A stretch of DNA of 64,000 bases from Octopus vulgaris (lineage: Eukaryota): NCBI GenBank assembly GCA_951406725.2, contig OX597827.1:17174001-17238000 (forward strand). Direction: 5' to 3'. Below, piece by piece: positions 7,151 through 50,596 of the stretch. Position 1 is the first letter of the stretch. Each line of letters starts with the position of its first letter. The notes beneath the pieces are model-generated. The model made no database searches and was not told the origin of the DNA. It was given only the letters and a program-made list of their open reading frames with translations. The position numbers and the translations under genes are program-made.

Positions 7151-7960
7151 GCAGGCTGTTTCGCCTCATACCGAAGGAATTAGAAATGGCAGTCAAAGAC
7201 CGTTTTTCCATTTTCTATAAGTGGAGAATCCAAAAACGAAGGCCCTTACGGCTCACATACACAAAACCGGAGTGGCAAATATGCGAAGTCAGTCACTTAC
7301 CGTTAATAGCGAACACGTGTTTCTGGATCGCAAACATAGAAATCAGTTTGAATTCCGTCATCGGCGCTATATTCGATAGCTTCACCAAATGCCACTAGCC
7401 CTCACATCTGACCCAGCGACATCTGATAGTGGGGGGAAGAGCGCAGATGTTAAAACTAAGTAGCGACTGGGAACGTAAATTTTCCCTCCAAAATTCTGCC
7501 ATGCGCGCTTTCTGGGTAATCGTAATGGAATGAGGAATCCACATGGTAATGCAATAAAAATGGTAAATAATTTTCCTGTGGTTTTCATGTAACCAACAAT
7601 TATTTACCGGTAAATTTCGGTATGTAAATACGACAAATTAATTGTCAGGACCTTTGTAAGGTTCAGTCAGGCTGTTTCGCCTCATACCGAAGGAATTAGA
7701 AATGGCAGTCAAAGACCGTTTTTCCATTTTCTATAAGTGGAGAATCCAAAAACGAAGGTCCTTACGGCTCACATACACAAAACCGGAGTGGCAAATATAC
7801 GAAGTCAGTCACTTACCGTTAATAGCGAACACGTGTTTCTGGATCGCAAACATAGAAATCAGTTTGAATTCCGTCATCGGCGCTATATTCGATAGCTTCA
7901 CCAAATAATTGTTGGTTACATGAAAAACCACAGGAAAATTATTTACCATTTTTATTGCAT
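7151..7960 (-). mobile_element. (TA)n-flanked element with 516-bp period and inverted terminal piece
   Basis: 7151-7390 repeats at 7668-7905 (ORFs 7186 and 7702 near-identical); 7905-7960 is the reverse complement of ~7548-7603. Confidence 0.75.
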
Positions 7961-9049
7961 ATATATATATATATATATATATATATATATATATATATAT
8001 ATATATACATATATATGTGTATATATATATATATATATATATATATATATATATATATATTGTTATTATTTTATTTATCCTATATTATATCAGTATAACC
8101 ATGATGCAATCTTTAAAAGCCGATCTACTAATCAATATCATTAGACGGTTATATATATTCTCCCAATTTCTGATTCATTCTATACTACTTAAATCCATGA
8201 TTACAAATTTTACACAAAACCTAAGACGTATTCAAGCCCGTCCCTGTTTCAAATTTTCTGCATTTGCTTGTCAGCAAAAAAAACACAAAGGTTCTGTATT
8301 TATGTTACCTGCATTCATGTACCCGTAGGATTTCTTATACTTTGGTTCCCTAATTCCTTCTGTAAATTCTTGTTAACTTATTTTTCACTGCAGATTCAAG
8401 AAACTTTCGACTTTCTTGTAAAACTTTTAGCACGTTAAAATATATATGTTTCTATATTTGTGACTGCAAACTTCTTGGGGAAAGAAATTGCTGTATCGCA
8501 AGATTATGCTGTTTGGAAAAATATAAAAACCCAACTAACCAGATTTGATGGCTTTTGCTGAGTATTGCATTTGCTATAATTTCCTGCTGCTGTTTTGCAA
8601 TATATACATATGCATATATACATATGCATATATATATATATATATATATATATATATATATATATATATATATATATATATATATATATATATATATAGA
8701 GAGAGAGAGAGAGAGAGAAAGAGAGAGTAGGAGAAAAGATACACATACACACACATATATATGCATTCATATATACATATACATATATATATATATACAT
8801 ATACATATATATATATATATATATATATATGCATATACATATATATATATATACATATACATATATATATATATATATATACATATATACATATATATAT
8901 ATATATACATATACATATATATATATATATACATATACATATATATATATATATACATATATATATATATATATATATATATATATATATATATATGCAT
9001 ATACATATATATATATATATATATACACACATATATATATATAACTAAA

Positions 9050-9200
9050 TTCTCTTACAACTCTCTTATTAGATTTTCCCTTGCTATGTTTGTCAATCGT
9101 TTCGTTCCATCCATCATGACTATTCGAAGAAATCTTTCCATTCCAGTCACCTTGGATTGTCACTATAGCTTTTTTCCATTTCTTTTCTTTGTCTTTGTCT
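9050..9200 (-). pseudogene. RTE-like LINE APE endonuclease fragment
   Basis: [33 protein letters not shown] matches the GDWNAKIG...W....G..NERG pattern. Confidence 0.65.
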
Positions 9201-10649
9201 TTGTTTCACATCTGTTTTTCTTTTCGTAGACATTGACAGACATTCTCTATTTCTTCCTTATAAGAAAATCCCTCGTTGCAGCATAAATTTGGATGATTAA
9301 GATGTCGTATGGCTTAGCTGCCAGTCTTATTGCACATACTCTGCGAACCGGTGTGCAATCTATTAGTGACATTTAAGAAATTTTACGCATCTTGAGGCCT
9401 ACGCCATTTTTCATTTTTGCATTCCTCCTTCTCACTAAATCATATTTTATTCTCATTATCTGTCATAAATCTTCCACATGTTACCGATCTTGCTTCAGCA
9501 ATCCCATAACATTCTCAAAATACATTCCCTCGCATAAGTTTGGTTTTACGCTTTCAGGATAATAAAATGTTCGAATATTCCAAGTTTATAAATCTTTTAA
9601 TTGCTTTTTACGACAGAGACAGGGAAGAACAGAGAGAGTGAGAGAGAGAGAGAGAGAGAGAGAGAGAGAGAGAGAGAGAGAGAGAGAGAGAGAGAAATAA
9701 GAAGAAGACGAGAGACGGAGAGAGAAATAAGAAGAAGACGAGAGAGAGAAAAACAGAAGCAAGAAACTTTATTGTTTGAGATCCCGAGCGTTCTTTTATC
9801 ATATGAAAGCTTTAATATCGTCACTATGGTGTATATCAGCGGACTGACAACCTGACTATATCTCTCCCTTCTGCAAGTATCACTGTCTGCTTGTATCTTC
9901 ATGAGCGGCTCCTTCTCTGTTTATAAATTTGAACTGTAACCCTGTTAACCCGGTTCTCTTAAAACTGGTATGGTATATGGTCATAAAAGCACTCATACAC
10001 AAATACACACACACACACGCATATATATATATATATATATATATATATATATATACATAGATATATTCATGTATATATGTGTATATATATATATATATAT
10101 ATATATATAGAGAGAGAGAGAGAGAGAGATAGAGAGATAGATAGACTGATAGATAGGTATACGTATATACATGTACATATAGATATATATACACACATAC
10201 ACACACACATATATATACATACATACATACATATATATATATATATATATATATATATATATATATATATATATATATATATATATATATATATTTACAC
10301 ACACATTTAAACACATACATATAGATGCACATGCATATATAAATGTTCGTGTAACTGCGAAATCTCCAGTTTCGCAACAAGAAATAGGAGAATTTCCTTT
10401 TTTTTAAAGTCGAAGTAAAAGTTATTTGTAATATAAGCTCAAGAATGCTGATAATGAAGAAATCGGAATAAAAGAAATAAAAAATATGATTAAGTCAGTT
10501 TGAATATTAGAAAGAATGTAAGATTTGTGGATAAAGAAAGGCAAGTTTAAACCTGAAAGTTTCGAGGAATAAAAACGAAAAGTGACTAGCGCTGTTTGAA
10601 GAAACGATAAGAAAGCGAGAGCTGTCAGGAAAGATTGGGTCATTAGTGG

Positions 10650-11000
10650 AGAAGTTAGATAATACGTGATGAGGATAACAAGTATGTTATAACACCACTG
10701 GATTATATAGCAGGTAATTTTGTTATTGCAAGAAATATCATGTGACATATTGGCCAAATAATTGAGATTAAGAGAGGGTCTGTATTTTCTATAGTAATGT
10801 TAATTATGAGTCATTTAGAGAGGAGAGCAAGACAATTAGATAGGGATTAAGAGGTAAAATTGAAGAATTATATTTTAATTGTATAGAAGAAAAGAAAATT
10901 ATTGCCAAGATTTTTTGGTAAGGGAATATAGCGAAATTGCACAAGACACCTTGTAAAATTAGATTTATAGCTGGCGCAAAGAAAAGTACGAACAGACAGA
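10650..11000 (+). pseudogene. Penelope-like reverse transcriptase N-terminal fragment
   Basis: KLHKTPCKIRFIAGAKKST at ~10934-10990, with KYVITPLD upstream, matches PLE RT motifs (P.DK..N / PKLHK.P...RFIA). Confidence 0.6.
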
Positions 11001-49404: not shown

Positions 49405-49460
49405 GTTCTGCTGACGATCATTAGACGTAAGTTGAATGTGAAATCACGGTGATACAGAAC
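49405..49460 (+). ncRNA. Type I hammerhead ribozyme motif
   Basis: GTTCTG-CTGACGA-T-CATT.GACgtaaGTT.AATG-T-GAAA-TCACGGTGA-TA-CAGAAC. Confidence 0.85.
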
Positions 49461-49884
49461 TAAATTCATTTTTTAAATGTCTTGCTTTGAAAAACTGCAT
49501 TTGGGTATGATTAGTATAATTTTGGTAGTAATGACTTTGTCCCTCCTAGTGTGAGGCATTTATGTGTAATAATGCCCTCTATACAATATAGATATAATTA
49601 ATTTGTTCAAAAGAAAAAAATTATTTTCGGATTCTTTTCTTTTATGAGGTTTTCACGCTAGCTACCCGATAATTTCTTGTTAAGATCCCTTATTAAGAGA
49701 TTATCCTTAATTGTTAAACTTATTCCGAAATACTTTTCATTACCCGACATGCAGTTCGTAAAAAGCCCGCCATTTACCGGATATATGATTTATAAACATT
49801 CCATGTGCTTGGCCGGAGTGAGCAGTTGTCTGTTCGTCTTCGCTACGTAAGGTTGGTAGTTTATTTATGATGTGTTCAGAATCA

Positions 49885-49940
49885 GTTCTGCTGACGATCA
49901 TTAGACGTAAGTTGAATGTGAAATCACGGTGATACAGAAC
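49885..49940 (+). ncRNA. Type I hammerhead ribozyme motif (second tandem copy)
   Basis: Identical to 49405-49460, 480 bp downstream. Confidence 0.85.
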
Positions 49941-50596
49941 TAAATTCATTTTTTAAATGTCTTGCTTTGAAAAACTGCATTTGGGTATGATTAGTATAAT
50001 TTTGGTAGTAATGACTTTGTCCCTCCTAGTGTGAGGCATTTATGTGTAATAATGCCCTCTATACAATATAGATATAATTAATTTGTTCAAAAGAAAAAAA
50101 TTATTTTCGGATTCTTTTCTTTTATGAGGTTTTCACGCTAGCTACCCGATAATTTCTTGTTAAGATCCCTTATTAAGAGATTATCCTTAATTGTTAAACT
50201 TATATTATATATATATATATATATATATATATATATATATATATATATATATGTATGTATGTATATATATATATATATATATACAAAGAAAATAAAACAA
50301 GGTACAAAAGGCAAAAATAATTTTATCATGAATAACATTTTAGTACCAGTTTCAGTCTTTGCGACTTTTCAACTTTTCAACGCATGAAAAACAATTAAAT
50401 GTGGAAAAATTAAATGAAATATTATTTTTTTAAATATTTCCATAGTTTTCAGATACAAAGGTCATTTTCCTTTTTTTGTGTCTATATATATATATATATA
50501 TATATATATATATATATATATATATATATATATATATATATATATATATATATATATATATAATATATATATCTATATATATATATATATAACTCC

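Follow-up and report, generated by a model that had tools for sequence, protein, structure and literature searches.

A window of 64,000 nucleotides (nt) from the genome of Octopus vulgaris (assembly GCA_951406725.2, contig OX597827.1, positions 17,174,001 to 17,238,000 of the forward strand) contained four tandem elements, designated E1 to E4, that carried hammerhead ribozyme motifs and had arms ending at fixed sites. Their sequences and layout suggested that E1 to E4 were very probably non-long-terminal-repeat (non-LTR) retrozymes copied in trans by the reverse transcriptase (RT) and endonuclease of a Penelope-like element (PLE), likely of the Neptune type. A circular template seemed slightly preferable to a linear multimeric one. 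We recognized a known kind of element because of the hammerheads, the two fixed ends, and the link to PLEs, none of which was in a first-pass annotation of the same DNA. The families are new members of that kind, with mechanistically useful detail. Below, positions are those of the window.

Layout of E1 to E4 and their hammerhead motifs

The periods and inverted pieces of the four elements were determined by self-comparison of the window and by BLAST. The E1 tandem (7152-7390 and 7668-7906, 99% identity, E value of 1.6e-118) had a period of 516 bp, and its inversion (7903-7959) matched 7550-7605 at 98% identity. The E2 tandem (13619-13821 and 14115-14317, 99.5% identity) had a period of 496 bp; its inversion (14307-14362, 82% identity) contained a small internal duplication. 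E3 had a period of 476 bp (24798-24943 and 25274-25419, 93% identity) and an inversion at 24693-24796 (90% identity). E4 consisted of 2.6 units of 480 bp at 100% identity (48953-50203) and an inversion at 48835-48957 (99% identity). All four periods and the inverted pieces were far above chance expectation, which bore out the periods and inverted copies reported in the first-pass annotation. No real open reading frame (ORF) was found over E1 to E4.

Other parts of that description needed revision. The 516 bp given as the E1 unit was the period of this locus; the family unit was 549 bp, and the window copy was short by 33 nt at an internal junction. The annotation placed (TA)n runs at both ends of each element, which held for E1, E2, and E4, but E3 had (TA)n on its 3' side only. 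The left side of E3 adjoined a broken LTR-retroelement-like remnant (24150-24690, with a zinc knuckle and a protease-like motif) that we take to be Gypsy. The four sequences had also been described as divergent. E1 and E3 indeed showed no relationship to E2 and E4 or to each other, but E2 and E4 were homologous from the ribozyme through the 3' end (69% identity by BLAST; z of 35 to 39).

The features are listed below. The 3' ends were measured from the predicted cleavage site, and each family had a short end and a long end; ends placed by BLAST include a few bases common to (TA)n.

7130-7959, read on the minus strand: E1, whole element
7094-7129, no strand: (TA)n target at the 3' end of the E1 main arm
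7130-7906, minus: E1 main arm, 1.43 units, finishing at the short end of the family (about 193 nt past the predicted cleavage site)
7305-7370, minus: E1 type I hammerhead motif with a CCGAUGA (U4C) core and a palindromic stem III, predicted cleavage between 7312 and 7311
Core from 7880, minus: E1 second hammerhead motif
7903-7959, plus: E1 inverted arm, finishing at the long end of the family (about 312)
7959-8060, no strand: (TA)n flank of E1
13619-14362, read on the minus strand: E2, whole element
13619-14317, minus: E2 main arm, 1.41 units of 496 bp, long end (about 254), adjoining (TA)n at 13603-13617
13860-13923, minus: E2 canonical type I motif (CUGACGA...GAAA...UA), predicted cleavage after 13866
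14307-14362, plus: E2 inverted arm, short end (about 151), followed by (TA)n at 14362-14421
24693-25419, read on the plus strand: E3, whole element
24693-24796, minus: E3 inverted arm, 3' end about 142 past the cleavage site, without an outer (TA)n run
24798-25419, plus: E3 main arm, 1.31 units of 476 bp, long end (about 245-253), followed by (TA)n at 25423-25468
25106-25178, plus: E3 motif with a U3 core, predicted cleavage after 25174
48835-50203, read on the plus strand: E4, whole element
48835-48957, minus: E4 inverted arm, short end (true end about 132-136; 142 by BLAST), preceded by (TA)n at 48785-48835
48953-50203, plus: E4 main arm, 2.6 identical 480-bp units, long end (269), followed by (TA)n at 50201-50283
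49404-49461, plus: E4 canonical type I motif, predicted cleavage after 49454
49884-49941, plus: E4 second motif, one unit downstream, predicted cleavage after 49934

Type I hammerheads, numbered here by the standard scheme, were sought with a strict scan first, then with U4C allowed, which found E1, and then with U3 allowed, which found E3. The strict scan of the window found canonical motifs in E4 (two) and E2, whereas 0.01 loci were expected based on 100 shuffles. The window copies of E4 and E1 had two motifs each and those of E2 and E3 had one; other E2 copies had two. In one preprint, an element is called active when it has two or more complete hammerheads in succession (bioRxiv 10.64898/2026.07.22.740005). 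In E3, a CCGAYGA candidate near 24995 was rejected because stems I and III do not form, and the motif near 25110 fit. This window motif was decayed, with GAGA instead of GAAA and a broken stem III palindrome.

The motifs were also compared across the family samples described below. All 37 E4 loci had the canonical core; of 30 E2 loci, 28 were matched, and 26 of these had it too. N7 varied in both families. CCGAUGA was present in 24/26 E1 loci, and stem III alternated between CACGUG and CAUAUG, such that the palindrome was preserved. The 3-8 pair of E3 was compatible in all 30 copies (C-G in 3, U-G in 18, and U-A in 9), GAAA was found in 27/30, and the stem III palindrome was found in 22/30; 17/30 copies, but not the window copy, passed the combined core, GAAA, and UH pattern. 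U3-A8 occurs in schistosome PLEs, and a palindromic stem III implies folding as a dimer (PMC4209133). The non-canonical cores (U4C and U3-G8/A8), which are shared with an autonomous PLE, would escape standard hammerhead descriptors. No hammerhead family occurred among the 150 of 362 Rfam matches listed; these were nearly all microRNA families under gathering scores, mostly on microsatellites or hairpins. A multiple alignment of nine hammerheads was uninformative.

Genome-wide families, fixed ends, and paired arms

The genome that was searched (2.8 Gb in 227 contigs) was microsatellite-rich. First-look candidates per unit query numbered 1,128 for E1, 1,791 for E2, 2,152 for E3, and 1,639 for E4, and the best-scoring 40 of each formed the family samples, which favor young, full-unit copies. 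In these samples, full-unit E4 copies were 97-100% identical and E3 copies were 82-89% identical; the E3 family is old. Arrays ranged from 1.1 to 12.3 units, and those of E4 reached 12.3 near-identical units. Units showed 1.7 differences within an arm versus 7.4 between loci, and 59/138 unit pairs within arms were identical compared to 77/4125 between loci. The arrays of up to 12.3 near-identical units, like the published retrozyme model, fit the proposal in the first-pass annotation that reverse transcription passes several times around the unit.

Each family had two fixed 3' ends about 95-127 nt apart, although they were less sharp in E3. The short and long BLAST ends were 142 and 269 in E4, 151 and 254 in E2, 193 and 313 in E1, and about 142-167 and 247-253 in E3. 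Among 63 E4 arms, 25 ended at 142, 28 at 269, and 4 at 264-268; the true short end was about 132-136. The ends of E2 and E4 were at homologous positions. (TA)n flanked both sides of 35/40 E4 copies and at least one side of 40/40.

An inverted second arm was present in 24/40 E4 copies, and the two arms usually combined one short end with one long end (20/24 two-armed copies in E4, 14/19 in E1, and 15/18 in E2, or 49/61 in total). Like-ended pairs were absent (0/61), and the remaining 12 copies had one irregular end. For E4, the binomial probability of this pairing was about 1e-6. Outer ends were used for typing multi-segment copies, and the E1 and E2 queries fix the class of one arm, whereas the E4 query does not. 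The first-pass annotation had called the inverted copy short. It was inverted, but it was often long: only 4/24 two-armed E4 copies had an arm of less than 150 nt, and at least one full unit was present in both arms in 10/24.

These regularities bear on two other explanations. Monomers could insert and then expand in place as satellites via slippage or unequal crossing-over, with repair of AT-rich sequence producing the inversions. One preprint proposes that PLE ends amplify locally (bioRxiv 10.64898/2026.07.22.740005), and some long arrays may be later growth. However, most copies comprised 1.1-3 units and were partial tandems in which the 3' end was fixed and the 5' end fell at random, and strict, family-specific pairing of short and long arm ends is not expected from expansion or repair; we consider this explanation very unlikely. 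Inverted repeats and TA targets are also known in Helitron/Helentron and foldback elements, and the families could be DNA-level derivatives of such transposons that prefer TA. The spread of 5' ends along the unit, the absence of fixed terminal inverted repeats, the constant spacing between the sense-strand hammerhead and the ends, and the existence of an RT-encoding PLE with the same layout make a DNA-level origin extremely improbable.

The 5' ends were spread along the unit and were slightly more frequent in its second half (Kolmogorov-Smirnov P of 0.046). Only 1/64 was within 5 nt of the cleavage site, and 9 were within 30 nt compared to 8.1 expected. Run-off from a cleaved linear RNA was rejected because the 5' ends did not pile up at the cleavage site.

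How the second arm arises was less uniform. The first-pass annotation suggested that the second strand is primed by fold-back or template switching, and the strongest form of this idea is that every inverted arm is made by fold-back copying from the first cDNA, with the endonuclease cutting at the second fixed site. In 16/20 E4 copies versus 6.7 expected, the start of the contained arm lay 0-150 nt downstream from the 5' end of the containing arm (0/20,000 permutations were that high). The 24 E4 arm junctions included 13 that overlapped by 1-17 nt, 3 that were blunt, and 8 with inserts; both arms carried the same subfamily or locus variants, and one study attributes the PLE tail to endonuclease resolution (PMC8557442). 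Thus, fold-back likely acts in E4. However, the offset excess was absent in E1 (3/12), E2 (5/15), and PLE-A (0/9), an autonomous PLE of this genome that is described below. Moreover, neither arm was contained in the other in 2/20 E4, 4/12 E1, 3/15 E2, and 5/9 PLE-A copies; fold-back is not the sole route because neither arm fits inside the other in these 14/56 short-plus-long copies. (The containment test included 12 of the 14 short-plus-long E1 copies; two multi-segment ones were left out.) In vitro, both target strands were extended and two RT start sites bounded the tail (PMC11167929). Fold-back as the universal source of the inverted arm is therefore unlikely, and refuted as the only one, and two RNA-templated arms are needed outside E4. 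Simultaneous priming of equal-length products on one circle was disfavored since non-contained pairs were not in excess.

Further hammerhead families were found in the fetched DNA, with periods of 397-398, 488-489, and 535 bp; a period of 706 bp was doubtful. Only the 535-bp period and the doubtful 706-bp period came from an unbiased, systematic 800-kb sample. A fifth family, E7, which the first-pass annotation lacked, was present in the window as the following feature.

44463-44800, minus: E7, 5'-truncated copy with a canonical hammerhead (core from 44751)

The E7 period was 434-460 bp in 8/20 copies, and a nearby PLE frame was found in 0/20. Unit sizes over eight families were 397-549 bp, which was clustered but wider than the 476-516 bp range from which the first-pass annotation had suggested a constraint on RNA unit size. 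Because published retrozymes span 51-972 bp, a tight constraint is not shown. The 800-kb sample contained 20 strict hammerhead motifs compared to 0-1 in five shuffles, which suggests that the genome holds many hammerhead families; the window, with 8 motifs in 64 kb, was about 5 times richer. A de novo tandem search of the same sample found 6 partial tandems, with a convincing hammerhead in none, and it missed the 535-bp element.

Several individual loci had unusual features. In three E4 arrays (L287, L313, and L314), non-adjacent units had a common substitution, a hint of a two-unit template or of later block duplication. Alternating unit variants as a sign of a dimeric circle were limited to these three arrays, were imperfect, and involved a CpG in one case; we treat them as a hint only. 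An unrelated stretch of 241 nt separated the two arms of an E4 array with 12 units (L298:7273-7513), possibly through switching to another RNA template. The E4 copies L362 and L317:7743-8585, which are on different contigs, agreed in their 5' position and had nearly identical left flanks that were not TA, which suggests duplication or co-mobilization with the flank. In the window, an element related to E3 but diverged from it occupied 44799-45138 and had an inverted arm; across a TA run, it was faced by a second, short 3' end.

Penelope-like elements and the nature of the template

A PLE fragment beside one E4 array led us to PLE-A. This element has a 775-amino-acid (aa) frame with RT and GIY-YIG domains and a 454-aa upstream frame without a Pfam match. 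The linker of PLE-A is CX4CxxC, and we labeled the element as Neptune-type because this linker is defined that way in PMC8557442, which ascribes the same motif to Nematis too. All 150 scored hits were 100% identical over 204 residues, and the PLE-A protein is apparently active. PLE-A formed tandems with a 4271-bp unit and had inverted arms, (TA)n flanks, a CCGAAGA (U4C) hammerhead, and two ends, at 143 and 189. The older family PLE-B likewise had two ends. The extra 454-aa upstream frame of the very young PLE-A family, observed at locus L155 (G000:C1:27838500-27848400), is unusual since PLEs with an endonuclease (EN+ PLEs) are described as single-ORF elements.

The first-pass annotation noted that its interpretation would fail if most copies were the ends of long elements that are autonomous. 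In these samples, which favor full-unit copies, none of 123 loci (26 E1, 30 E2, 30 E3, and 37 E4) ran unbroken into a PLE ORF upstream on the same strand, and neither did any of 3 extra E4 loci from a 3'-only query. This method can detect long partners because a 271-nt arm of the palindrome at 15188-15730 does have them upstream. PLE fragments did occur beside some E3 and E4 copies, and, with the exception of L107, L114, L291, L314, and L320, these were inspected base by base. (TA)n intervened in L101, L103, L116, and L316, and the fragment in L099 was on the opposite strand, behind another microsatellite. At L316:1415-4215 and L121, an E4 array met a PLE-A fragment 3' to 3'; the two were joined without intervening TA, and the joint carried a short duplication. 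We rejected this array as a PLE-A terminal repeat because the junction is 3' to 3' on opposite strands. A decayed PLE endonuclease remnant was also present in the window itself (19660-19848, minus strand, E value of 1e-5).

Together, the layout, which is typical of PLEs (PMC8557442), and the ribozyme motifs suggest the following route for E1 to E4. Tandem transcripts would self-cleave to unit length, likely as dimers because stem III is a short palindrome, and would then be ligated to form circles. The PLE protein would nick (TA)n and would prime reverse transcription internally, 130-310 nt past the cleavage site; synthesis would then pass through 1-12 units, across the cleavage junction. Joining to the second target end would use the other fixed site and could take two forms: another cDNA templated by RNA, which is needed where neither arm fits in the other, or copying of the first cDNA by fold-back, which is favored in E4. 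The arms would meet at short microhomologies. By analogy, the two fixed ends most likely correspond to the two in vitro start sites that bound the PLE tail (PMC11167929).

A plausible competitor for one part of this route is a PLE-driven process that is circle-free, in which a linear, uncleaved read-through transcript of a genomic array is the template and the hammerhead is simply carried along. The same observations are compatible with a linear multimer because hammerhead mutations did not affect insertion by purified PLE, and uncleaved RNA was the main template in vitro (PMC11167929). Autonomous PLE-A makes 4.3-kb tandems as well, the variant cores of E1, E3, and PLE-A may cleave poorly, and the substitution common to non-adjacent units in L287, L313, and L314 could come from a heterogeneous linear source. 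In contrast, 5- to 12-unit arrays with array-wide common variants occurred at many unlinked sites, so a linear template would need long homogeneous source arrays for each subfamily. The hammerhead cores were conserved even though N7 varied, units folded better as circles than shuffles did (z of -4.9, -3.0, and -2.7; 30 shuffles, predicted folding only), and related mussel and coral elements are proven circles (PMC7229834). Homogeneous arrays and the lack of a 5' pile-up fit a circular template without proving one.

Several results weigh against a retrozyme copied by a PLE, in addition to the dispensable hammerhead in vitro. The E1 and E3 cores are variants, and U4C, which occurs in a viroid, considerably lowers activity in vitro (PMC3088659). 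Just 1/9 tested Xenopus retrozymes cleaved (bioRxiv 10.64898/2026.07.22.740005), and isolated motifs from our elements folded no better than shuffles (z of -0.2 to 1.6). PLE-A itself did not follow the pairing rule of the short families strictly, as 9/14 two-armed copies were short plus long and 5/14 were long plus long. Finally, no terminal repeat homologous to E1 to E4 was found in PLE-A, PLE-B, or seven other PLE 3' regions; the best z between a unit and a PLE was 4.9, compared to 35 for E2 and E4. These nine 3' regions are a small part of the approximately 19,000 first-look PLE candidates in the genome.

A more specific proposal, which we make tentatively and regard as doubtful, is that the families are a genomic record of circular ribozyme RNAs copied by rolling-circle reverse transcription. 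The enzyme would be a dimeric Penelope protein obliged to use two RNA sites, one per target strand and 95-127 nt apart, recognized by structure and by spacing from the hammerhead and not by sequence shared with the driver. If true, this would explain the mobilization of metazoan retrozymes and the formation of PLE tails and inversions, and the proposal could readily be tested by pairing the identical-copy E4 family with the intact PLE-A protein.

Neighboring elements and comparison with known systems

The window contained other elements with two arms. The palindrome at 15188-15730 carried a hammerhead on each arm, and its family (L322-L341) consisted of a module of about 310 nt with a fixed 5' boundary that was downstream of varied sequences. 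The upstream partners included a PLE RT-endonuclease remnant (L338, partly common to L333), a piece of long interspersed nuclear element RT (L325), and gag-like zinc-knuckle frames at about 9/20 loci, several of which are likely one amplified block. It is possible that a PLE end captured and mobilized the upstream sequence. Eight more palindromic or inverted-pair elements were located at 6277-6671, 6740-7075, 11551-12288, 20712-20849, 22084-22409, 45201-45369, 47510-47623, and 61026-61369. Several of them were between (TA)n runs, and one involved an abundant short interspersed repeat. These eight are likely two-armed insertions that are too short to include a hammerhead.

L1 elements can acquire an inverted 5' segment by twin priming during target-primed reverse transcription, with microhomology at the junction. 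The arms described here differ because they overlap in the template and each has its own fixed end. Twin priming on one molecule also predicts that long-arm 5' ends cluster at the short site, and no such clustering was observed.

The nonautonomous PLEs of Chlamys, such as MRC1, are non-coding, multicopy, head-to-tail, and PLE-dependent (PMC8557442), as E1 to E4 would be. However, their 3' ends are generally similar to those of autonomous families, and canonical hammerheads are missing from most Chlamys elements, whereas our families have hammerheads and 3' homology was not found. EN+ PLEs of the Neptune clade (PMC8557442 and PMC11167929) share 5' truncation and partial tandems with the octopus families. 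They also have a 5'-truncated copy in inverted orientation at the 5' end, a tail at one end, a terminal-repeat hammerhead, and a (TA)n preference tied to a CX2-5CxxC linker. The octopus families differ in being without an ORF, in having tails of about 95-127 nt instead of 30-40 nt, and in pairing their ends more strictly than even PLE-A does.

The units fit the pattern of metazoan non-LTR retrozymes (PMC7229834 and bioRxiv 10.64898/2026.07.22.740005), which have non-coding tandem units with a type I hammerhead each, low GC content, and no LTR features, coexist with PLEs, and are proposed to arise by RT copying of a circle into tandem cDNA. The units here (397-549 bp) exceed the 170- to 400-nt expressed circles of the 2020 paper (PMC7229834), and those of E1 to E4 (476-549 bp) lie outside its 150- to 450-bp range, but all fall within the 51-972 bp of the 2026 preprint, which sampled no mollusc in the portion available. 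Two of our families have non-canonical cores, and two fixed ends, inverted second arms, and (TA)n targeting are not in the available descriptions of retrozymes. In Xenopus, 24/57 retrozyme families matched known elements, nearly all of them PLEs, whereas a homologous PLE terminal repeat was not found here. In the literature searched, which did not extend to repeat databases and supplements, we found no report of these families, of 95- to 127-nt tails, or of a strict short-plus-long rule.

PLEs have been called a strong candidate for mobilizing animal retrozymes (PMC7229834), and the 2026 preprint leaves the mobilization mechanism for elucidation. The enzyme that mobilizes animal retrozymes, the use of circles, and the origin of the tandem and inverted structures of PLEs (PMC8557442) are thus questions in print. 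The young octopus families display the full PLE insertion footprint on retrozymes, with rules that can be counted (short-plus-long pairing, long tails, and the fold-back signal of E4), and an apparently active PLE protein is encoded in the same genome.

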